A stretch of 55,568 nt of DNA, filler included, from Sphacelaria rigidula (lineage: Eukaryota): NCBI GenBank assembly GCA_964200075.2. It is 5 parts of 5 records of this genome, joined end to end, with 100 filler letters (N's around TTAATTAATTAA, not from the genome) between each part and the next. Parts side by side here need not be neighbours in the genome. Positions count along the whole stretch, not along the records: positions 22,270 to 33,302 come from CAXNAA020005502.1; 4 more parts are not named here. One strand, written 5' to 3'. The notes below the pieces were generated by a model. That model saw nothing but the letters and a program-made list of their open reading frames with translations. It was not told where the DNA came from and made no database searches. Positions 11,036-44,535 of this stretch are shown here, piece after piece. A program made the translations under genes and the position numbers. The number at the start of each line of letters is the position of its first letter. Position 1 is the stretch's first letter.

Positions 11036-11135
11036 NNNNNNNNNNNNNNNNNNNNNNNNNNNNNNNNNNNNNNNNNNNNTTAATTAATTAANNNNNNNNN
11101 NNNNNNNNNNNNNNNNNNNNNNNNNNNNNNNNNNN
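11036..11135. other. Artificial contig-joining spacer N44-TTAATTAATTAA-N44 (also 22170-22269, 33303-33402, 44436-44535)
   Basis: The same 100-bp spacer occurs four times and its 12-mer gives stops in all six frames. The flanking segments have near-identical, non-increasing lengths. Confidence 0.97.
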
Positions 11136-11899: not shown

Positions 11900-13575
11900 A
11901 TGTTTACCCGAAACAGAAACCAACTTCTCTTTGTAAAATTGGAATTGTGGTAGTTTTTCGCTCCTGCCGTTGTTCTTGAACGCACTGCCGTTGGCTATTT
12001 GACTCTTGCATTCAGAATTGTCGTGTTGTCGGTACGATGAAGATTGCACCACTTCACAGGCCTATTCCCGCTGTTTGACTGTCTTCTAAAACGACTGTCA
12101 CGCATATGGTGGCCAGAGTTCCCACAGTAGTAACGTTTTCCAGTGAACCTAATAGATGTTGTTGATTAATCAAACGGCGATGCCGCTATCATGGCGGAAT
12201 CATGACCACGTACCCCCTTCGACAAAATAACGCGTGCAACGCGATTTGAGTACATGTTTCGCATTGTGACTTGAATGTCGGAGATGCTTAAGTCGGGATC
12301 ACGCTCGGCATCATACTTTATCCGATCGTAATCATCACCTAAATCTTCCACCACGATATCCACCAGTCTTTCATCGGAAATGGGCTCGCCCATATAAACT
12401 AGCTGGTCACGAAGTTCAAAGACCTTGGTTAGAAACACGTCAGGTTCTTGTCCAGGCGACATTTTGATATTATCGAGCTGACGCATGAGAATTCGTCGCC
12501 GTTGTTTCGAAGAAATCTCGTATTTAGCAACCAGGGCCTCCCAAGCAATGTTTCCGTTCGGTTTTGCATAGCCCTTCGGCTCGAAGCAAAAGAGAAAACT
12601 ACCCGCTGGACCTCGAGTTGTCGAGTATAAAATGTTGAATAACTTCTCGTTGCAGCGATCCCAATTCTCAACTCCTGAACCGTTCACCACAATTCTCGCA
12701 TGTGTTTCGTCTCGGGTGGATTCCACGCCGCCGCCAGCCGGGTCCTCAACTGGATCACTTGCTTCGGCTGCCCCTTCACATGAAGACGGTGGGATTCCTT
12801 GGGAGCGCGTGTGTGGCGGGCTTGATCCTGACGCGGGTCGTGCAACCGGGTGTGACTTGGCATCTTGAATGTGCTCCACGCCATCAAAAATTTCCGCGAG
12901 GGGAATAACTCCGTTCATTATATCAAAAGTCCCTGGGTGCGTCAGGGAAATCGTGGCACGCGTGCTGCACTTCCATTCGAGGAAATTAGTATCGTCGGAT
13001 TTCCCGATGCTCATAATGACCTATGCAACTGGTGGTTCTCCTTCATTATTCATCTGTTGCAAATATGTGAAAAAAATATCATACCTAAAACCATGGGCAA
13101 TTCAAAAATCTGAAGGCTGGACTCTTCTCACGTTTTGCTGCTGTGACGACCTTGATGGAAAGTCCCTTCGTTGGTGCTGTCCGACGTAGTCTCGAATCGA
13201 AGTCTGATGACCTGGTGACCTACGTGGTCGCGAATCGAGGCTTATAACCTGTTGGATAAGCTCGTGTTATGTAGCACTGTCTCAAAGACAGACTGACTAC
13301 TGTCGCGCAGACAGTAGTATATGGCAGAGCTTACACCTGTGGTTGTGAGACCACTTGTTGCAGCTCAAAATAAGAATCGATAAGATAGATGGTTGATTGG
13401 ACTCTTCATCCGGCCGAGACAAAACAGAACGCACAGTCTCTTCTCGAAGCAGAGAACTGAGGGTGGTGAAGGAGAGTGATTGCATGTGGGTCGACTTGAC
13501 CAAGCTCAGCGCACTCAATCCTTGGAACAAAGAACAAACTCTACACGTGCGTGAGGCAAAAAGGCATCCTCGACA
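11900..13575 (-). mobile_element. Truncated Ty1/Copia LTR retrotransposon (5' LTR ~13575-13250, PBS, gag; no pol)
   Basis: On the minus strand TGTCG...CCAACA is followed directly by GGTTATAAGCC (13249-13239), resembling the half-tRNA-iMet PBS of Copia elements. The gag ORF follows, then a frameshifted KWCNLH..HDNSEC knuckle-like remnant at about 12055-12000. The outer LTR boundary is tentative. Confidence 0.75.
12166..13014 (-). pseudogene. Copia gag (Retrotran_gag_2/UBN2-like) ORF, 282 aa, prematurely ended
   Basis: NEKLFNILY, GNIAWEALVAKYE, LDNIKMSPGQEPDVFL, LRDQLVYMGEPISDERLVDIVV and DDYDRIK are typical of Copia gag. Confidence 0.8.
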
Positions 13576-20800: not shown

Positions 20801-21691
20801 AAGATGTAGACGGGCGTCCAGAATAAATGGGATGACAACACACACATACTCGTTGGTGGGAAAAAGAAGCTTTCCCTCCACAGGTATCCGGCACACCTTG
20901 GGGTATGTTTGTTTGCAGGCGGCATCGAATCCTTCCCACATACTTTTGCACTGGAAATATTAGATATGGCGATCAAACCGAAAAAAAAAACGCGATACCC
21001 GCCCACCACGCAGTGCCATCTTCCCCCTTCTGCATTTCGTCGAACACGCAGAATATCATAAACCAACAGACACATGGGCACACACACACAGACAGACGCT
21101 TGGAAACGAGCACTTGGCGCTTTTCCAAAAACGTATACCCCTCCTCTCTATGAACACGAGAAACGGGAACAAGTCAATTAGTCTCTCACCTCATCTGCCA
21201 GCGGATGCCCGAAACTCTTGTACACAGCCGCCCTTACCATGCAGATGGCGCACCGCTTCACGTTAGGCTTAACCCGAAAGGTCAAACGTGGATAACCCCC
21301 ATCGACATTGCCACTAACCAGCACCTCAGCGCCCCCTTTCCCCACTCCAACGTCATCCCCCCCCGCCGGGTCCACACCTCCCTCACCCGCGACCCCTCCC
21401 ACTGCACCAACACCCCCACTCCGGGCATCAACGGTGTCGGGACGTGGATGGGGGGTGAGGGCGGGAGCCCCTTGTCCTTCTTCGGTTAGCGCGGCGTTTC
21501 GGGCACATGTCGTCCCCTGCTCCGCTGGATATGTGGAAGTAACGCTGATGGACGGTGGGAGGGGTTCTAGGCGGATATCGGAGATGATGAGGTGGTGCTC
21601 GCAGTCTCCGTGGTGTACGAACATGAAACGCTGGCCGAGGGCAGGGCGCAGGTCGTCGACGGTTACGTCGGATGCCCATACTAGGTCGCCT
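14858..21691 (-). CDS. SNAPC3: snRNA-activating protein complex subunit 3 (SNAP50), last two exons: ~21691-21190 and 15103-14858 (stop)
   Basis: zf-SNAP50_C motifs LGQRFMFVHHGDCEHHLIISDIRL, YPR...KRCAICMV and LADE|EPVYCCQLCFGMLHYDADG are joined in phase 0 by a GTGAG...CAG intron of 6.1 kb. The stop TAG is at 14860-14858. The upper acceptor is uncertain by about 2 nt, and earlier exons were not found in this contig. Confidence 0.9.
20120..20848 (+). mobile_element. SINE family A copy split by a nested copy (pieces 20120-~20346 and ~20716-20848)
   Basis: Box A/B head at 20120-20192. The body stops at GCAGAAGGA and resumes after 20715, continuing to the GGCGTCCAGAATAAATGGGATGACAACACAC tail. Confidence 0.85.
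20350..20715 (-). mobile_element. Full-length SINE family A copy nested in the opposite orientation
   Basis: Reverse complement of the complete ~360-bp family A sequence, from head (20715) to CA-rich tail (~20350). Confidence 0.85.
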
Positions 21692-21880
21692 CTTTTCGGG
21701 GAACACACACGCGCACACAGCCACACGAACGCAGGAAGGAATGCACGTATTCGCGCATGCACAGCGGGGTGACGGGAAAATAGGGGTCAGGCGCGAAGGG
21801 GGGGGGTGAGGGAGGAGGGAGGAGTAAAGCAAGGGAAACTCAAGCTCGCCACGTTTTCTATTCCCATGCAAAGCTACCGC

Positions 21881-22169
21881 GCCCCGGTGGTGTAATGGTC
21901 CGACTGTCGCCATTAGGGTGGAGAGAGCGACGGTTCGATTCCCGATACGTTCGGTTTCTTCTTCGTTGTTATGTCTGATCTCCACCGTGGAAAGCGTGAG
22001 AACGTGAGTAAACAAAGTAGTCGACTGAGTTTGTGTGATGTGAGTTGACGCGGGGCGGGAGTGCTGACCCAATCCGCGAGACCAAAATGTAAGGCGTGTA
22101 CCGGGGGGGAGATGGGTTGATCCTTTGGGACCACGGACTCATGTCGAGGAGGGGGGGGGGGGGGGGGGG
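21881..22169 (+). mobile_element. tRNA-derived SINE family B
   Basis: Box A TGGTGTAATGG and box B GGTTCGATTCC. The body (GACGCGG..GGAGTGCTGA..CCGCGAGACC..AAGGCGTGTACC..ACCACGGA) is shared with 48730-48893 and 53595-53927. Confidence 0.7.
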
Positions 22170-22949
22170 NNNNNNNNNNNNNNNNNNNNNNNNNNNNNNN
22201 NNNNNNNNNNNNNTTAATTAATTAANNNNNNNNNNNNNNNNNNNNNNNNNNNNNNNNNNNNNNNNNNNNTAATGTTATTATGACCTCTGTATGACCCGAC
22301 CCGCTTACTAATAACCCCGGGCTAGTCAACCCGGACCGTCTTCCCGGGTCTGTCACCCTGGGACTGTCATCATCCATTCCCCGGTCTGGGAGCATCATTC
22401 TCCCGTGTCAAGATGCCTCCTTGTGGGTGCATCCCCCATCCCGTCATTCTGTACCTCAACCCAAACCGACTTGCAAAGTCCGTCCTGTTTAAGTCCACGT
22501 CGCGGCTCCGCACACTCCGCACCCTTTCACCGAGTGAGGAGCTACAACCTACACCCGCCCACCGTCCCGGGTAGGATAAATCATTCTCACTGTCCGACTG
22601 TGTCTCATATTAATGAAGCTTTGATTCTTCGCATACCTTCGGAGCCAAGGCCAAGCTATATTCATGAGTTTCGGTAATACATTGCACATCACACTTTTAC
22701 GACAAGAACAAGACCAGACAAATACCACAGTGCTCTGCAATGCTTGCTCAATCAAGCTAAACGCATCTATCTGCACCGCCAATTTGCCTCCGATGTTGTG
22801 GTAGCAGATAGGGCCAACAGTCATGGGCGCTACCTCACCCAAGTCGCCCAAAAATGGATATTTATTGAGAGTTTCTTTATGTGAAGAAAACAAAATCCTA
22901 GCACCGCCGGAGGGGGCGAGGGGGGGGGGGGTACATAGGGTCTCGGAGA

Positions 22950-23045
22950 TTTGTTTTGGGCACCCTCGGACTGCACCGAAATTTGAACCCACGACCCAAC
23001 AGTCATGAGGGTATGAAGTTACCACCTGAGCCACCGGGGCGACCG
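22950..23045 (-). mobile_element. SINE family A, head fragment
   Basis: Reverse complement of CGGTCGCCCCGGTGGCTCAGGTGGTAAC...GTCGTGGGTTCAAATTTCGG. Confidence 0.7.
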
Positions 23046-23467
23046 ACTCTCTACGTTGTACAAATGACATACTTTCGAAATATTCATCAACGGCACGTGG
23101 CTCCCACCAATGCCGAATTGAAAATAGGCAGGTGTGCTAAACGACCACCGCTCTGGCTTCGAAAAAAAGAGGCATAGGTCACACTGTCATTCACGTGACT
23201 CCCCTTCTTCCCCTCCCCTACTCCGTCTCGAAAGGGATGCGTGGTCAATGGTCGAACGACTAAGGCAAGCAACAAATGAGTACCCCCCCCCCTCCCCCCC
23301 CTACAGTGACGCTCAGTACATTCTCTGAAACGAAAAGTATGCTGGAAAATGGCGAGTAAACAACGCTTGGCGGAGAGTGAAGAAAACGGAAACGGATAAA
23401 ATCAGGGCTGAATCATCACCGCATATAGTACATCGACACAACTAACAACGCTAACACCAACACGCAC

Positions 23468-26400
23468 CTTGAAGTGGAGCGTGATCAGAGAAAATACAAG
23501 GCACTTCAGGTCCTGGATCAGGTAGTAGAAGATACGCAGACCTTCCGGGTCATTGCTTTCCTGCACGTCTAGTAGCGACCCGATCTTGGAGCACTGATGG
23601 AGCGCCAAAAAACAAACAACCAAACACACACACAAGGACAAAATCGCGAGTAGTTAAAGGAAAACAGACGAGGAAAAAAAAAGACGGAAGCATCAGCAAC
23701 GAATGGAGGATTTTCTTCATCATGTCGCCGTAAACGACATGCTCAAGGTGAAGGAGGGAGTCAGGACACACACACACACATGAACGTGGATCATGACTAT
23801 TGTATCACCAGCGCCTGAAGCCTCACCGTGAAAGAGATGTGCTCGTTCCCAAGTTTTACTTCCAGCTCCTGCCGCCCCACGCGGTCAGGCTCCGGCCAAT
23901 TGTGATCATCTTCTCTGTTCGTTTTGGTATAGTACGGGCCATATGATGTGTGTGTATTAATTCCAAACAGAATAAAAAAAGTCGACGTCATATTAGTCCA
24001 CGCCTGGTATTTTTCTAGGAAGATAGAGGTGACATTGAGTGACCAAGTTCATGAGTTTGCCGCGAGGGGACCTCTCGGATTCTTCTTCTTTTTTCTGACA
24101 GTTCCGTACTGTGTTTTTGCCCGTTGCTGTATTCCTCCATTCTGCCGTATTCGCAGTGTCGTGTTCTGGAGATGGAAAAAAATGATGTGTCAGTGACATA
24201 TATAGAGAGATTATTGCGATGCACAGAATAATGTGTCAGGCCAATATTGGCGCCGGATGCGCGATCCAACACACACACACACACACACCGCAAAAAAAAC
24301 TCACGCGATGATATCCGCCTCCTGAATGATCCGGCGTACTTCGTCCAGCACCGCCTGGCTGACCACCACTTCTTTCCTGATCATGCTGTCATTCTTGTAG
24401 TTCGAATTGTTCGCGTACCGCAGCTTGCCCGTGCTCGAGAACTCGAACTCCATAAACTCGTGTCCGAATTTTCCCTTGTGCCCGACACTTTCATAGAGTT
24501 GGGGCAAAAAATAAACGAAGGAGTGCACGAGAGATAGAGAGCGAGAGTAAGCGGGAAGATAGCAGGAGAACAAAAGACGGCTTCTATTTATGCGTGGATT
24601 CTTTGCCAGAAACATTGCGATAGGGGCCTGCCGTTTCTTCTTTTTCCAACTTGGGAGCGGCATTAGGCCTTAGCTTGGGGAAGATCCGAAATCATCCAGG
24701 CTAAAGCCGGGCACCGCAAATCCGGTCGCCCCGGTGGCTCAGCTGGTAACCTCGAAATCTTCTAATGGGACATGGGTTCGAACCTAGGAGCGATCTGGGA
24801 TTTTTTCTCACACAGTGCCCCACAGTGGAGAGCGGCGATGTCGTGGGTACACCAAATTCGACTTAATGGTCGACGAGGGAAAGGGAACGCTGTCCCCTTC
24901 TCGCGATAAAAAATAAAGGCAAGCGCCACAGAAGAAAGATGGGGTATTGAAAACGAAGAAGAAAAAACTCCTGTGTTGGCCTTCCTCCCGTGTAAACGTG
25001 GCTGGTGCGCCCACGTATACCGAAAGGTGTAGACCGGCGTCCAGAATAAATGGGACGACAACACCGCGAATTCTTACTTCAAAAGAAAAAAAATATACTC
25101 TGATCGGACATGCAGCAGAGGCTCCGAAGGCCGGAGAGATGGAAAAATTGAAAAATATCGCCTTATTTTCGGTGATGACTATTGTACACTTGACATGACA
25201 AATTCGACGTATTGCGACCATCTGATGAATATTCCCAACCCGGAAATTGATTTGACGACATCAGATTGGTGGAGGGAAGGCACATTTTTGTGAGGACGGG
25301 GTCATACAAGCCGGTGCAAACGCAAGATGAAGGTTTCAGCAGCTGCGACCGACTGATCGTGAACATCTTCGAACTACAGTCGGGCAAAGTTAGCAGAATC
25401 TAAACATCTGTCTGCCTGCCCAAAATCTCATCAGAATTGCGGCACAGCTACGCTGTAGGCATTCTAGAGATACCTTTCCCCTTCCCGGGGGTATAGCCAT
25501 TCGTAACCTACAGGCAAAACGGTAGATAACACCCCCTAGGCGTATTTGGGCAGGGGATGGAATGCTTTTATCCGCTTTCATCAACGCGGGAGTGGCGGGG
25601 GAGATCATAACAAAATAAACACGGTAGGATATAGCGGTTTAGTGATATCTTTCCCATCCCCAGGGTCACCATCATTCGAATAATGTACGCGCACCTCAGG
25701 CACGTGGAATAGCGCCAAATTTGCGAAGGGACGTTTTTGACCCGGGGTGAACTGCCCTCACTCCTTCGAGCGATCAGACCTCATAAATCGTAGATTTGGT
25801 GGTGAGAACCGGTGATGATTCGACCAACACTTGCAACGTTCCAAAAGCGTAGAGATCGACGTATCTTATACAAGTCACGCAACGAAGCCACACTGCACCC
25901 AGTCGCGCAATGGCCGCTGCAGAATATATTAAAAAAAAAATGGTGACCAAGCTTTATGCGCTGCCAAGCGTGTCAATGGAACAGCAAGTGCGGTGCTACC
26001 TCACCTGTCCTGTTCATCAAAATCAAAGGTCGCAACTCAAACGTTTCAGACATCCAGCATGAAAATCGCGCTAGTAAAACGCGGTTACATGAATATCCCT
26101 GTAGTAGCCCCCCAAACTCTCGGAGGTGCACCGCACAAGTCCAAACCAGTTGACTGAGAAACTAGGAACAAATTGTCACGTCGTATTCCCTTCGTGCTCG
26201 CTACGAAATGTCTGATGATTGACGGCTTGATGGAAAACACAGTATCTTTTTCATCGTAGAGGATTGCGATCGACTGTGCGCCTGAACAACTCACGATCAC
26301 GAGTCGTTCATACATAACGTGGAGTCAAACTTTTCCGGGGAAACGTCCCAAACCTATTTCCCAAGTTACGGCTGGTCTACCCAAGCAACTGTCTCGATTG

Positions 26401-27760
26401 GCATCACATGCAAAGACTGCACATCAGGCCAAGTGTCTGGGGTTGGTAAGGCAGGTTCTCTCACGTTCATGAATAGTACTTTTCTGTGCTGCGAATCTTT
26501 CGTTCAGGAAAATAGCGTGGGGGTACGGTGAATACTACCCACGTGATATTTACATCCATGAGGGTGACATACAACGTACCCCCCTGACTTAACTTGGCCA
26601 GTCGGATGCACGCGATTTGCATGCAAAGGGGGAAGTGATAGCGCGCTAAATTATATGCCTTGGGAAGTCAAATTCTCAGGGGAGGAAGTATCGCGGGGTG
26701 GTACACAGGTATGGGAAGATATCATGTTGCCCTTGTTGCTCTCAATGTCTGCTGCTATATATACCCGCCGCGAGATGTGACAACTGATGATCTTCGGTTT
26801 TTCAGTATGTCAGCCAACATTCAAACAAGGGTGAGGTCGTCACTCGTAGGACATGTAATACACGAGCGCTTTCCTATCGGAAGATGGTGGTGTACAGCGT
26901 GATGAACATTATAATGGATGTAGTGTCGAAAGCAGCCGAAAATTCATCATCTGAAGACCAGGGGTGATATACAACGTATCAGTGATTGAACATGAAAGGC
27001 CTTCAGTCTGCTACAACATTCGTGAGCATAAGCGACAAGTGGCCATGCAAGGAAATGCGCTAACCGCCTGTAGTCCCTGGTGGTTGGGTCGTTGTTGTGT
27101 AAACCTTGAGCGTTGCTACATGTGCTGCCTGTGCGCGTTATGCTGTGCGATTCGTTATGTGAGGTGAGCTTCCCCCGTCTGGCCCCATTACAAAGCACTT
27201 CATTACAAAGCACTTCGGACACAGAAAACCTTAAATACGGCAAACGCTGTCTGTACTACATATACTACTGCTTATAGGGGCATCCATGACAGCAAGAAGC
27301 TCAGCGGAGACAAACCCACCACCTTGCACACGCGTACAATACCGTACACCATCAATCTCAGGGCCATTTGGTGATGAACAAATGAAGCGGTATCCTGCAC
27401 CGACAGTGGCCACATGGGACTGATGACGCCAGCACGCACAGTTTTCGAAACAATAATCGACCGTAAGTACCCCCAGGTGAAAGCCTTTTCGCGAGGCGGA
27501 ACAACACAGACAGTGCAAAAACAGTGTCGTGTCAGACAAGTATTGTAGGGAGGGACACGAGATACGGGCGATCGTGAGCGTTGGGGGTGGGGGGCAAGGA
27601 ATCCAATCGTAGCGCCGAATGAAAATCAAAACACCGAGCAGGCGCGCCAAATGCAAGTGGGCGAGATGGCACCGACAGCCAGCCAAAACAACAGCCGTAC
27701 TATTCTGTACTGTCTGTTGTCGACGACTTACTAGTATCGACAGTAGAACTGATCCGCCAT
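23468..27760 (-). CDS. MAGOH: Mago nashi (EJC core subunit); exons 27760-27732, 24487-24305, 23914-23827, 23593-23468; last ~4 codons not found
   Basis: The spliced product is [142 protein letters not shown] (142 aa), an unmistakable Mago sequence. Introns are GT-AG with phases 2, 2, 0, and a further GT donor lies at 23467. Confidence 0.97.
24722..25061 (+). mobile_element. Full-length SINE family A copy in mago intron 1
   Basis: Box A/B head and family tail. Flanked by CACCGCAAAT (24712-24721) and CACCGCGAAT (25062-25071), a candidate 10-bp TSD. Confidence 0.85.
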
Positions 27761-30700
27761 GGGTACGTGGAGCGCCGAGTTTGCAAATTCCTTGCAATCC
27801 CTTTCCCCCCGCCTCCCCGATTCCAATCGTCGCTTTCAGCTGCGCTTCCCTCCTGGCGGTCTTTCAATCTCCCCCACACAGCCCTTTCGTTTTACACGCA
27901 CCCCTCAGCCGCCCCAAACCAAACGGCCAATATCTCAGGACCAAGATAACGACGGGAAAGGGGCGGCGGCTGAGGAAAATAAATTACACGTACTGCCTGT
28001 AGGAGGATTCGTAAAGTAGAGAACGGCACTTCACGACTTGACTTGACTTTCTAAGGGATGGAGTCGCCTCAAAGCTTGCCCATCAGCATGTAGTATGTCT
28101 TTAGGATGTGCGTAGCAAACCTTCATTAAAATGGCATATGATTGTAGTATGGCTTTGGGAAAAGCGTAGCAGAGACAGCGAACACACCCCGTTGCTTGGT
28201 GCCGCGTGAAAAAGCTAGGTCAGCTGCCGTAAGAAGAGGATACGAGCAGATCAACGACAACAGGTGCATAATTCATACACACAAATTTGCCATAGTTATT
28301 GTAAAATCCGAAGGCAGTGCCGCTTGTTATTGATCGACTCGTTAGATTGAATGGAATTTCAAAGGGAAAAAAGGGGTAGCGTTGCCTCGTGGCGGAGCGG
28401 AGGGGAGGCGCGCGCGGGGCGTGACGGGCGGGCGGGGTGAGGAAACTGGTCGGCACCTGGGTTAGACTCCCTTCAAGTATGAAACAAACGTGAATGATGA
28501 ACAGTGTTTGGGCCATGGATTGACTGCGCCTTCGAGGCAGGAAACATTGTTGTGAGATGCAACCGATGGAACGCACGCGTCGAGGACAACTTACAAACGT
28601 AGCAAACCGCGGGATTTGGGAGGTGCTCAAGGACCGTCGACGGGAAGACTCTCGTGACGCCCATGCTTATTCCTGTGCAAAATACATAAGTGCACGGAGA
28701 CCTTGTTAGAACGTCCGAACTGCGACGCCTCAGTACAAAGGATTTGATGTGTTGACTGATAGTGACCCCGCTCATCATCATCTGGCGAAGGGTGACATGC
28801 CTTCCCCAAAAAATACTGTTTGGCTGTGCTGTCGAAAAATAGGTGGATGAGGCGTTTTCGTGAAACGAGCACGTACAGTATCGGGCAGCACCTGAACTAT
28901 TTTTCCTTCAAAAGGTTTTTTTTCTCGCGACTACTCTTCGATAGAATTCGAAAATGCTAGCGTCGGTAGATGTTGGTAAGATAAACAGATGGTGTTCCCC
29001 CAGTGCCCAAGTTGGTGCTGGTTGATGTTATCAGGTGGTAGGAGTAGATACCCCGTTTACCAGGAGGGTGTTATTGAACGTGAAACACTGTTTTTCGGCT
29101 CCAGTGCAATGAGTAGCAAGGACTTAAAAAACACAAATCTGCACATTTCTTCACGAATACGATCGGGACAGGCTCGATCGACCTAAAATAGCGAAGAGTC
29201 AGAATCTGGGCTGAAACGTATGAGGACCCGCGATGACCGGTCAACCCGCAAGTCACTCAATATTGAGAAAGTACACATGTTTTTTTTTCTGGGAATGTGG
29301 AGCGGATACGAATATTCTCAGATCCCCAATGTAAAGAGCGGTGGCAAGCGAAAAAGCCCAAGAAAATCGCCAATTACGAAGAAATTACAAGATGAAAAGT
29401 ACAGGTGCCCAGTACTGTACGTTATTATGGAAATGGCACCAGACGTAACGAAATGTCGGGTGCAAGTCTTCGTGCTGCGTACCGCACCCATATTATGAGT
29501 TGGTGCTTGTGTAAGTTATCCACGCCGACAGCATTCGGTGAGCATGTGTGGAATGATACTTTTGGGGATGCTGCTCACACCAGAGCACGAAAAACTTGCC
29601 GTGCCCAACCCAAACACAAAACAGCAACGCACAGCCTTGTCCAGGCCAGTTTGTTATCACATGTGCTTCTAGATGCCTCCGTACTTCGATGGAAGATGAT
29701 GAATGTCGCGGGTTGTGGGGACCATTAGCACAATATTGGGCATAAACCACGGCTGCTATCAAGCTCCACTTGTTTATTCGGGAGAACTTCACTTTCAAAA
29801 GTGCGACGAGAATTCTCTACAATCGCGTTCGGGTGACGAGAGGAATTTCATCGTGTATGAATTCCCCAACTTCTTTCCGTGTTCTGGATTAAATGTACGC
29901 CGTCAGTCTTGTGCTCTGTAATGGGCGGAACTGAGCCGGATTTGTTGAGGAAAGTATTTGAAGTCTTGTTCTACACCTTTATACCGATTCGTTTGTGACC
30001 ATGTGCATCGTCGATTCTTGTGACTCCACTATGCCTCGTTTTCGTAGGAGGGTGTTGAAAAATGTGAAATGTGACACTAACCAGGCACAACACTGAGAAT
30101 GTTCAATCAACGGTCAACTTTGGAGCATGACTTCTTGGGCAGGCTATATTACTGGGGTCTGCATACATGCAGTACGTGCATGTACTGTGCTATTCTATTT
30201 GTTGTGAGCAATGAAGGAAATAACGTTGAGAGTACTACAGAGTAATATGTCGCACTTCCACCGGTAGTTCTCTCGGAGCCGTTTGGACCATTTACAACAT
30301 AGATGCCCCTTTACCCCCGATCCCCGTACACTATCAGGGATAGTTGGGCACGAGAGAACTGAAACGAACCAGGGCTCAAATCGCCGTCTCACAATTATGC
30401 CCCCCCCCTCCTCTCTTCCCCCTCCCTGCGCGCGCTACCCACTCAAGCATATCACGCACTCTTAGTCATTATCCAGCCATCGAACTTTGGTCCCGGAGCA
30501 AACCTGATTCGTGAAGTCTTGACGATAATCGAAATTCTATGTATGGGCTTCTCATCTCTGCATCAGTATCATGCACTCTTTGCATTGAAGGTCCCTGGTC
30601 CATCCGTGGGCAACGTCGTGCGTTTGGTCAGCAAGAAGTCAGTGCTGAATGATCACTCTCTTGGCCTCGGTTGATATGGTGGAAGGAGAATACTGTGCAT

Positions 30701-30871
30701 CATTGGTGATCAGTCCATATAAACACATGTGTTCATCTGCCCCCTCCTTCCCTCCTCCCCTCCTCCCCTCCCCCCCTCCCCCGTGCCTCCCTACGCAAAC
30801 GCGGCCGCACCAAGCTTGACACCAGCAGCCCAACCCAGAGAGAAGGGGAGTGGTCAGCAAATCAACTAATC

Positions 30872-31119
30872 ATGGCGGATGAGGTAGACTTCGAGCCGGA
30901 GTACGAAGAGGAGCAGGCAATGGATGATGACGCAGAGGAGGAAGAGGAGGAAGACCAAGGAGAGGATGATGACGATGCTGATGCGGCAGGGACAGGGGGC
31001 GCGGGAGATGCCGATGGCGGGGGCGGAGGGGGCTCTAACGGCAAGGCTGCGAAGGGTGGCAGGAAATCGGGCACGAAGGGGAGGGGTCACCAAGCCGTGT
31101 CTATGGATGTTGGGGATCG
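30872..31119 (+). CDS. RBM8A: Y14/RBM8A/tsunagi (EJC core subunit), first coding exon only
   Basis: MADEVDFEPEYEEEQAMDDD...KSGTKGRGHQAVSMDVGDR resembles the Y14 N-terminus (plant-type VDFEP-acidic-MD, then K.KGRG). It ends at a CG|GTGAG donor at 31120. The RRM exons were not found before the contig ends at 33302. Confidence 0.8.
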
Positions 31120-31414
31120 GTGAGTTGTTGAATATGCAGCGCTTTGTTTCTGATTCGTATGGTAATGGGGGGTGACTTATTTTTGTGCTGTTGAAATCAG
31201 AAAGTAAAGAAACTTTCCAAGGTTGTGTTCTGTTTAGATAGATGGGGTATACCCGGAAGTGGAGGATTTTTTGTTGGTATACCAGACCATACCGGATTGT
31301 CTATCGAACATTCCGGTGTGCTCGGGGAGGGTATCGAGCCCTGTTCCGAGCACTCTGGAACAGGGTATCGAGCCCTGTTCCGAACAGGACTCGTCCCAAG
31401 AAAGAGGAGGACGG

Positions 31415-31927
31415 GGGGGTGTACTCTTGATCTTGCATGCCGTAGTCATATGATCATCGACCTTGCAACCCTACAAAGCTGGGACAGAGCACGCCGGATT
31501 TTCTCTGGACCAGGCTCGTAATTGATCACCAAGCGCGAAACGCCGAGATGTGTTCGGCGAGTCGCATGAGGGGTGAGCTGCATCTTGCCAAGATTGATCG
31601 GCCCGAAGCCTACTGATTACCTCCCATTTGGATGACAGCTTACAATGAGTTGCCTCACTTTTTGGTGTCGCCACTTCCGGAGACAGCCACGCGCTTCTAC
31701 ACTGCCTCATGGGTGTCTTACCATCACCATCTAAAAACCACGTAGTACGATCATTCCCTCTGCACGGAATTGAGCTTCTCCCACCCCGCACAGTATGGTC
31801 TAGCCCGACCACCATCATGCTCACCGCAAAAAAACACAAGCGCAAAAAAAGGTTGTAACCTGGCTGCCTAGCTTACGCAGTGAGTGGCGTGTTTTACAGC
31901 GTCATTGCCAACGGACGCCAACCCCAT
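31415..31927. repeat. Interspersed repeat family C, copy 2 (in putative Y14 intron 1)
   Basis: Homologous to 2677-3172; begins GGGGGGTGTACTCTTGATCTTGCATGC. A short terminal fragment is also present at about 45538-45578. Confidence 0.8.
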
Positions 31928-33741
31928 GAGGGGTCCGTCCTTACAAAGCCGGGACGGAGCACGCCGAGTTTTCGCCGGAAAGGGAGGGGGTGGGGGGGTG
32001 TAATGAAAATAAACGTGAAAAATCAACCTTCCATTTTTATGCAGCTTACTTACTACATACTGATGGTAGGGTAGTCCATTGGATACAAAAATGCGGGCAT
32101 GCACAGGCAAATAACGAGTAGTAAAGTGTCCGGCATAGTATATCGGTGAGTGGGAAAAAGATAATGGTGTGTTCGTCGCGCTGTATAGTCGGTAACGGCA
32201 AACTACCGATATATCGTATATAACGTTTCTATGTCTTGACGATATTATCGGCATCAATGCCTAAGCCTACCCACCACTCCCTCGTATTTTGCACCCGTAG
32301 GGGTGTCCAATCGAGCTCCGTAGCGTGCGAGCAGCACCGGCTAGTGGTGTTTATTGTTGGTAATCGGGTGACGCGGTGCTGAATTTGAGAAGTTGGGCGC
32401 TGAAATTTGTACACGATAGTTTTATCACCAACACGCGCAATCTCTCGAGATGCCAAGTAATAAGATACAGAGAAAGTCAGAGCGATTTGAAATTTTGGCA
32501 TAGACTGGAAAAATGTAAATAGCGCCGTCAAGAAAAAACGGTGGCATCCACACTATGTTGTACGTACTTGCGCGCAGGAGACCCCGGTAGAATTCGACGG
32601 AAATTTTCTAAAATTGAGCCCAGTGTGGAACTTTTTGTGTGGAACCGCTGCGCACTGACTGTAATCTTACTGATGCAAGAGACTCCAGTTATGGGAGTCA
32701 AAGGTTCGAATCCCTACAGATTCCTTTTATTTCGCAGAATCTGATTCCGTCGTTAACCCTTTTGGGACCGACCCCCCACTAACATAGGGCTGACCCTGTG
32801 TTCGTGAAATAATGAAAAAAGTCTTCGAGTGACCTGCCCCATCACGGTGAGGCGAAATTTATCGACCAGACCCGAACGACCAGTGCGGGGATTGTTGGCG
32901 AGTGTGATGCCACTGTAAACATCGTGTGAGGACCCTATCCCTGGCCCAGATAAGCCTTCCCAGGTTTCCAAGTGCAGGGTGGTCGGAACTTTGCTATATG
33001 GTATTACTTGCACTTAGTGTAGCGTTCCCGAGTTTTCCGTTTTTTTGGGGGGGTCACAATTTTATACTAAATCATAGTAATTACACTAACACAGGGTCAA
33101 CCGGGAAAAACCGGGAAGGAGTGAACATGCGACCATGTGGTTATTTTCACGGGGCACTAAACCCAGGTGGGCCGTGGAAAGACAAAAGGAGCTACCGTCA
33201 TGAGTTCTGCCTATCCCTCTGCCGATGACTTGCGATGTGCAGTCAACCTGTATGTAGTGGGCGGGGATGAAGAAGCGGTTTATAGGCAGTTGATCTCGGT
33301 AGNNNNNNNNNNNNNNNNNNNNNNNNNNNNNNNNNNNNNNNNNNNNTTAATTAATTAANNNNNNNNNNNNNNNNNNNNNNNNNNNNNNNNNNNNNNNNNN
33401 NNAAAAACGAGCGGAGGCCGGAGGAGCGTGCGGGCGGGGGGTGTGGGGGGGGGGGGGGGGGGGGGGGGGTGGGGGGGGGGGGGGGGGGGAGGGGCTATCG
33501 CGGCATCCGTCACCCTGTGTACGCTGGTGTAACTGTCAATGGTCACCAACTACGATAACGTCTGATGCTCGCCTTTTCTACGTGATGGTCTTGATCGATG
33601 ATGTGTGCCATGTAGGCAGTTTAGTTATATTCCCCTGGATCATGACTCCGACACACGCAAAGGTAGCCGCCCCGCGCTCCAACTCCTCTCCTCTCTTGTT
33701 CGTCCCTTCACTCGTCCGTGCGTCAGTCTTCGGGCACCCAG

Positions 33742-43855: not shown

Positions 43856-44535
43856 AGTGAAAAATAACATATCTACTTTCCCATACCAAATCCGAAAACA
43901 ACCTAGATTCTCTCCCATATAATAACAAACGTAAGACAAGAGTGAAGGCCAAAATCTAATCATGTAAGTAATAGCATGAAGGTTGACCACCCTGCATGCG
44001 TATGGAAAATACAAGAAATATAACCAGTACGGATAGGGTAGGGTCATCACCCTGTCCATGTCAAACTCACATGGAGGTTGGGATCTTGTCGTGAGATACC
44101 CTTGAAACCTAACCGGTTTTTATTGGGTGGTGGAAGTCTGGTCAGTCATTTCCAGAAATTTCCGACATTAGGTACAAAAGGTGCCCAATGGAAGGAAGGG
44201 GTGGACAATGCGTGACGTAAACGTCAAGACCTACTGCACTTATGAAACAAACACCTTACTGATGACCGACCACATGACCTACGAGAAGGAGCACCAAGTG
44301 GTGCGTAGATTTCTTGATATCTTGGAGGATAAAAGCTGGTACAAAGTGTGGGGGAATCGTTCGCCAAGCTTTCGGCAGCGAAGGTCTACTCGCAAGCATC
44401 AGTGGAGTATCGACCCATGGTGAACCGTACACGGANNNNNNNNNNNNNNNNNNNNNNNNNNNNNNNNNNNNNNNNNNNNTTAATTAATTAANNNNNNNNN
44501 NNNNNNNNNNNNNNNNNNNNNNNNNNNNNNNNNNN

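Follow-up and report, generated by a model that had tools for sequence, protein, structure and literature searches.

Mago nashi and Y14 (RBM8A) are obligate partners in the exon junction complex (EJC), and to our knowledge the genes for the two proteins are unlinked in human, Drosophila and Arabidopsis. A contig of the brown alga Sphacelaria rigidula raises the question of whether the two genes stand head-to-head in this organism. The window analyzed is a stretch of 55,568 nt from genome assembly GCA_964200075.2 in which five pieces (11035, 11034, 11033, 11033 and 11033 nt) are cut by four 100-nt spacers, apparently contigs of a fragmented assembly that were ordered by length before being joined. 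All exons of Mago nashi (hereafter Mago) and of its divergent neighbor (hereafter the partner gene) that are described below lie on the third piece, CAXNAA020005502.1, at positions 22270-33302 (11033 nt with zero N). The original prediction had been a two-gene EJC cluster, with Mago and a Y14-like gene diverging 3.1 kb apart on this gap-free contig. Our analysis indicates, with a probability that we put at roughly 0.6, that the contig carries the single-domain EJC gene Mago together with an expressed gene in head-to-head orientation, the first coding exon of which most likely encodes the N-terminal part of Y14/RBM8A. The divergent arrangement itself is confirmed and is tighter than had been claimed, whereas the identity of the partner as Y14 is something that we infer from N-terminal motifs.

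Mago nashi is an expressed gene with a typical structure

Contigs from four public runs (X1-X3 and X6) were aligned to positions 23300-33302. Runs X1-X3 are three small samples from one study for which the label 'RNA?' is a guess, no run being recorded as RNA, and they behave as RNA in that they contain spliced joints. The large run X6 is DNA-like, with every bin covered about 70-fold and none of these joints. Contig depth cannot rank genes; at the level of presence, transcripts of both Mago and the partner gene are found in all three RNA-like runs.

Exons 2-4 of Mago (Table 1) each score above the 27-bit cut-off of the Pfam family Mago_nashi (PF02792, profile of 142 positions) and match consecutive profile positions. 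The introns at 23594-23826 and 24488-27731 are skipped by contigs in each of the three RNA-like runs, with CT..AC borders that read GT..AG on the minus strand, and the joint 24487>27732 likewise occurs in all three. All Mago donors and acceptors are canonical. The start codon at 27760 on the minus strand, as originally predicted, is the first ATG of the first exon, the leader of which has no upstream ATG, and it opens a spliced frame that is intact: its 142 aa contain no stop and are collinear with the 147-aa brown-algal Mago proteins P0001 and P0003. Beyond 23468 the three runs share an identical continuation consisting of five codons and a stop that match the C-terminus of the orthologues, after which comes the 3' UTR. 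Neither 30 nt of this continuation nor its peptide was found in the window, indicating that the contig stops at 22270 before the last exon is reached. The 60 aa encoded in frame by exon 2 are 90-98% identical to brown-algal Mago proteins and 82% identical to P0022 of the green alga Klebsormidium. With its PF02792 match and 147 aa, the Mago gene found here is a real, expressed gene and a typical orthologue of the Mago known from animals and land plants.

Two further observations concern the deposited and assembled forms of this gene. The deposited Mago model for this locus, P0107, is partial (122 aa) and starts at an internal Met; it is 100% identical over the overlap, reads into the intron after exon 4 and lacks exon 1, which is 3.2 kb upstream. 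A 756-nt Mago contig of X1 departs from the leader at 28023 into Mago's own last exon, which is a circular join. This join is probably an assembly artefact, as it lacks an AG; the contigs of X2 and X3 reach 28042.

Mago and the partner gene diverge from a short gap

The outermost contig 5' ends are at 28042 for Mago (minus strand) and at about 28217-28234 for the partner gene (plus strand), leaving an untranscribed gap of at most about 175-190 bp. The distance of 3.1 kb in the original prediction holds between the two ATG codons, where it is the sum of the 282-nt Mago leader, the gap, the non-coding exon of the partner, a 2.4-kb leader intron and a 57-nt leader, but it does not hold for the transcripts, the 5' ends of which are at most about 175-190 bp apart. 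Judged from contig ends and from Pfam searches with the intervening ORFs, the two genes form a bidirectional pair with divergent 5' ends less than 1 kb apart and no gene between them. The absence of a recognizable gene in the interval had been noted earlier and is borne out, with 0 of 54 other ORFs of at least 70 aa on the contig matching Pfam at E <= 0.01. A single DNA contig of X6 spans 25686-28941 and so places both first exons and the gap on one DNA molecule. Spliced contigs also bridge both of the repeats at which the DNA contigs break (24487>27732 and 28436>30815), and it is therefore very unlikely that the contig is a chimera.

The gap contains a 29-nt direct repeat in two copies. The degenerate pattern of this repeat has no further match in the window, and none of 100 shuffles produced two matches; we infer that it is a candidate cis-element shared by the two genes. 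Divergent transcription from a gap of less than 200 bp fits co-regulation of Mago and its partner.

The partner gene has a non-coding first exon and a coding second exon

The plus-strand ATG at 30872 opens, as had been described, a frame of 82 codons running up to the GT donor that follows 31119. The exon containing it had been called the first exon of the gene and turns out to be the second, as in two of the three RNA-like runs its start at 30815 is joined to a non-coding exon with alternative ends at 28263 and 28436. Specifically, a 1047-nt contig of X1 joins a piece at 28234-28435 to 30814 (28435>30814, cut +1, GT..AG), corresponding to the donor after 28436, and in X2 a piece that starts near 28217 has the joint 28261>30813 (cut +2, GT..AG), corresponding to the upstream donor after 28263; both use the acceptor at 30815. 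Splicing onward from 31119, which the original prediction had proposed as a check, is observed: contigs exit the genome exactly there in all three RNA-like runs with one identical 30-nt continuation that extends the frame by ten codons, and 539 nt of the X1 contig remain after this point. The next exon was not found in the window with either the 30-nt continuation or its peptide readings, and the contig ends at 33302. Positions 30929-30998 within exon 2 are skipped by the contig alignment; this is a low-complexity stretch, where transcript assemblies tend to break.

The two donors of the non-coding exon give rise to two leaders. In the short-leader isoform (donor 28263) the ATG at 30872 is the first ATG, and its context has an A at position -3 and a G at position +4. 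Use of the donor at 28436 gives the long-leader isoform, which contains an upstream ORF (uORF) that crosses the leader junction and has its TAA stop 2 nt before the main ATG, and this uORF is absent from the short-leader isoform. An isoform-specific uORF of this kind possibly serves translational control or control by nonsense-mediated decay (NMD).

Table 1. Features of the Mago nashi and partner genes, in positions of the whole window.
Feature	Position	Strand	Description
Mago exon 4	23468-23593	-	Pfam E 3e-19, 69.9 bits, profile 97-138; ends in phase 0, last base 23468
Mago exon 3	23827-23914	-	Pfam Mago_nashi E 5.5e-10, 39.8 bits, profile 68-96
Mago exon 2	24305-24487	-	Pfam Mago_nashi E 2.2e-27, 96.2 bits, profile 7-66
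Mago intron 1	24488-27731	-	3244 nt; encloses very high-copy repeat at ~24636-25303
Mago exon 1	27732-28042	-	311 nt; 282-nt leader and coding sequence 27760-27732 (29 nt); donor GTAAGT; exon pieces in X2 and X3
Divergent promoter region	28043-28216	.	between outermost contig ends; ~48% GC over 28043-28233
29-nt direct repeat, two copies	28089-28117, 28143-28171	+	83% identity between copies, with starts 54 nt apart
Partner exon 1, non-coding	28217-28436	+	alternative donors after 28263 (X2) and 28436 (X1)
Upstream ORF, 46 codons	28351-28436 + 30815-30869	+	long-leader isoform only (donor 28436); computed from exon coordinates
Partner 5'-UTR intron	28437-30814	+	2378 nt (2551 nt from upstream donor); high-copy repeat at ~28978-29645
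Partner exon 2	30815-31119	+	57-nt leader, ATG 30872, 82 codons + 2 nt; donor GTGAGT; candidate for the N-terminal exon of Y14

The partner exon is conserved at the protein level

A phmmer search with the exon against 1.84 billion representatives gave three homologues, P0124 (E 7.6e-10), P0125 (4.2e-6) and P0126 (3.0e-5), each a short ORF on a single Logan contig of 2-4 kb. When the four sequences are aligned, an N-terminal acidic block and a C-terminal basic block are near-invariant, and the acidic and glycine-rich linkers vary in length with the frame kept. Similarity in all three homologues ends directly after ...DR, which is the exon border at 31119. As judged from sequence, this pattern is what a conserved exon coding for a disordered region would show. 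The peptide of the exon itself (82 or 83 aa, two borders having been tried) was not found in the protein collection, and the exon had no matches in prokaryote genome contigs or in viral contigs.

Is the partner gene Y14?

The N-terminus of plant and animal Y14 has an acidic motif of the DFEP or F-x-M-D-E-D type, followed by a basic KGRG and, 18-20 residues on, by an aromatic-acidic motif ahead of the RNA-recognition motif (RRM). The partner exon and its ten-codon continuation contain an acidic DFEP-type motif, M-D-acidic, KGRG and, about 19 residues later, FES, an order that we take to be that of Y14 with similar spacing and in which the partner resembles the Y14 of animals and land plants. 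FES is read from the 30-nt continuation past 31119. The blocks conserved among P0124-P0126 are these same Y14-type motifs. If the partner is Y14, the RRM that defines this protein is off the contig 22270-33302, and the 539 nt left in the X1 contig would be long enough to encode an RRM with a tail. These motifs make it probable that the partner is Y14.

The neighbors of Mago were also examined in other lineages. From 580 candidate stretches 450 Mago loci in metagenomes were confirmed, of which the best 80 were fetched; 38 of these were at least 3 kb long and fell into 19 groups by Mago identity, with one representative scanned for each group. There were 829 ORFs of at least 90 aa in all 38 loci and 345 in the representatives, from which 233 ORFs of at least 110 aa within 4 kb of Mago were scanned. 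The only RRM_1 match among these neighbors is in an 832-aa ORF that resembles poly(A) polymerase and is not Y14. One more Mago locus, L081, is a contaminant contig in a prokaryote bin, and here 34 of 40 ORFs of at least 60 aa were scanned (five overlapping Mago and one other were left out); next to Mago on this contig are genes for an adenylate kinase and for a WD40 protein of the BING4 type. A full-text literature search found no paper on linkage of Mago and Y14, in agreement with the earlier statement that no description of this adjacency was known, and no report of an EJC pair on a bidirectional promoter. The terms 'adjacent', 'synten' and 'chromosom' have 0 occurrences in the portion of the Mago/Y14 family survey PMC3885619 that was available. 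According to the available sections of a brown-alga genome preprint, adjacent genes in these algae tend toward opposite strands, and its methods set out how an association between short intergenic regions and opposite-strand pairs was to be tested.

Several of our results weigh against Y14, and the 'Y14-like' label of the original prediction finds no support in any search that was run. Similarity to Y14 was not found by any of these searches, which are a weak test since the disordered, low-complexity N-terminus was the sole query. Specifically, a word-indexed search for homologues among longer proteins returned no matches for the whole exon or for residues 43-82, and the library of 1.84 billion representatives contained no longer protein with the N-terminus of the exon. 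The PDB holds Y14 chains, and at E <= 10 the exon retrieved low-complexity matches only and the four-sequence profile none, with no Y14 in either search. Pfam and the Atlas gave nothing with the partner exon. Pfam also found no RRM in the 21 plus-strand ORFs of at least 35 aa at 31195-33225, which is the 2.2 kb after the exon; these belong to the 150 of 229 such ORFs downstream of 31195 that were covered, all but 21 being on other contigs. A Y14-type neighbor of Mago was seen in 0 of 20 other lineages (the 19 metagenome groups and L081), in a scan that would miss intron-split genes. Given that, by the sections of the preprint at hand, opposite-strand neighbors are common in brown algae, some divergent neighbor of Mago would be expected anyway. 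The contig ends that delimit the gap, finally, do not define transcription start sites. Regular expressions for RRM and Y14 motifs matched nothing in the window or in the fetched loci, and these blanks mean little as the same expressions missed the Pfam-confirmed RRM of L006.

Alternative explanations of the locus

The alternative that we take most seriously, though it is clearly the less likely one, is that the partner gene has no relation to Y14 and encodes an acidic/basic nuclear protein, the disordered N-terminus of which is first acidic and then rich in Gly/Lys/Arg, and that it came to lie beside Mago through common head-to-head packing and with no EJC cluster involved. The failure of every search to tie the exon to Y14 is what this explanation expects, as is the low complexity of the exon, a feature that many nuclear proteins show in part of their sequence; the differing neighbors of Mago in 20 of 20 other lineages and the opposite-strand neighbors usual in brown algae, going by what was available of the preprint, point the same way. 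By that same source the orientation and closeness of the two genes are ordinary for brown algae, and solely the identity of the partner would be special. It is this identity that the conserved blocks address, as several short motifs are found in the order and spacing of the Y14 N-terminus and the three homologues conserve exactly the Y14-like blocks, and the chance is small that a random neighbor would mimic the partner of the adjoining gene. For these reasons we prefer Y14 as the partner, and two more radical explanations fare much worse. Under one of them, the divergent promoter would give rise on the plus strand to an RNA without coding function in which the 82-codon frame is fortuitous; this would accommodate a second reading frame that is also open across partner exon 2, and the lack of a known domain. 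It is very improbable in view of the conservation of the protein sequence read in the acidic frame, where both ends have invariant residues and the linkers vary by indels that do not shift the frame, the onward splicing at the conserved border in three of three RNA-like runs, and the good ATG context. Even less probable is that the two genes are neighbors only because the assembly fused unrelated sequences at repeats into a chimeric contig. The assembly is fragmented into 11-kb contigs and the DNA-run contigs do break at high-copy repeats (24746-25038, 28941-29361 and 31357-31969), but the X6 contig that covers both first exons and the promoter, and the spliced contigs that cross both repeats, speak strongly against such a join.

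A more far-reaching version of the Y14 reading is also conceivable and is, in our estimate, doubtful. Here Mago and Y14 would be an ancient bidirectional pair, present throughout the brown algae, that senses its own product through the uORF isoform and EJC-dependent NMD. The uORF of the long leader stops some 250 nt upstream of the exon junction that follows, and the isoform would on this basis be a target of EJC-dependent NMD; decay of the long-leader isoform might then, speculatively, exert negative feedback on EJC dosage. The simpler proposal that goes with Y14 as the partner is that one short bidirectional promoter between the two genes would co-regulate them, and that co-regulation may lead to the two subunits being made in matched amounts.

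Comparison with known gene pairs and implications

Partners of one complex that are transcribed from bidirectional promoters include human HSPD1/HSPE1 and the divergent histone H2A-H2B and H3-H4 pairs, and this arrangement is thought to give balanced, co-regulated output. Provided that the partner is Y14, the locus described here would share with these pairs the divergence of two co-acting subunits from one short promoter, and it would differ from the Mago and Y14 genes of animals and land plants in being head-to-head on one promoter. Different from HSPD1/HSPE1 and the histone pairs is the leader intron of the partner, with its alternative donors and isoform-specific uORF. Partner subunits on one bidirectional promoter are already known as a kind, and the Mago-Y14 case, if true, would be a new example of it. 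From brown algae themselves, the available sections of the genome preprint describe a functionally linked head-to-head pair of the mannitol cycle, M1PDH3-M1Pase1, that is conserved across brown algae; this pair differs in that it codes for two enzymes of one pathway and not for an obligate heterodimer, and in that its conservation is documented there.

Should the partner be Y14, this would be, as far as our searches show, the first described EJC heterodimer with both subunits on one short bidirectional promoter, and nature would have provided a test of whether gene arrangement balances dosage. The absence of the exon peptide from the protein collection would in addition mean that brown-algal gene models miss an N-terminal exon of Y14. 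The promoter of about 180 bp with its repeated element would in that case be a candidate for two-gene expression in brown algae. Should the partner be some other protein, the locus is a head-to-head pair of the kind that is ordinary in brown algae.

Other features of the contig and window

Very high-copy repeats are present on the contig at about 24636-25303, 28978-29645, 31316-31983 and 32652-33302. Their depth in the DNA-like run X6, summed over contigs, is at least 10^5 versus about 70 for unique sequence. The copy at 24720-24790 appears tRNA-like by eye, and ARAGORN and Rfam find nothing there. Rfam gave zero matches on the contig 22270-33302 as a whole, and no long internal repeats were found on it. 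A scan for bacterial-type promoters and terminators was empty, which is irrelevant to a eukaryotic locus.

The spacers are at 11036-11135, 22170-22269, 33303-33402 and 44436-44535 and read N44-TTAATTAATTAA-N44, with stops in all six frames. As these are artificial sequences between contigs, any reading of synteny across them is unsafe. A Pfam scan of 150 of the 284 ORFs of at least 70 aa at 1-23136 yielded nothing beyond two matches, both on pieces other than that of Mago and hence not neighbors of it. One is a copia-type gag fragment at 12169-13020 on the minus strand (Pfam E 1.8e-10) and the other is an exon of SNAPC3, subunit 3 of the snRNA-activating complex, at 21181-21786 on the minus strand (Pfam E 7.5e-12). 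Poly-G runs occur at some of the contig ends, at 22141-22169 and at about 33440-33490.

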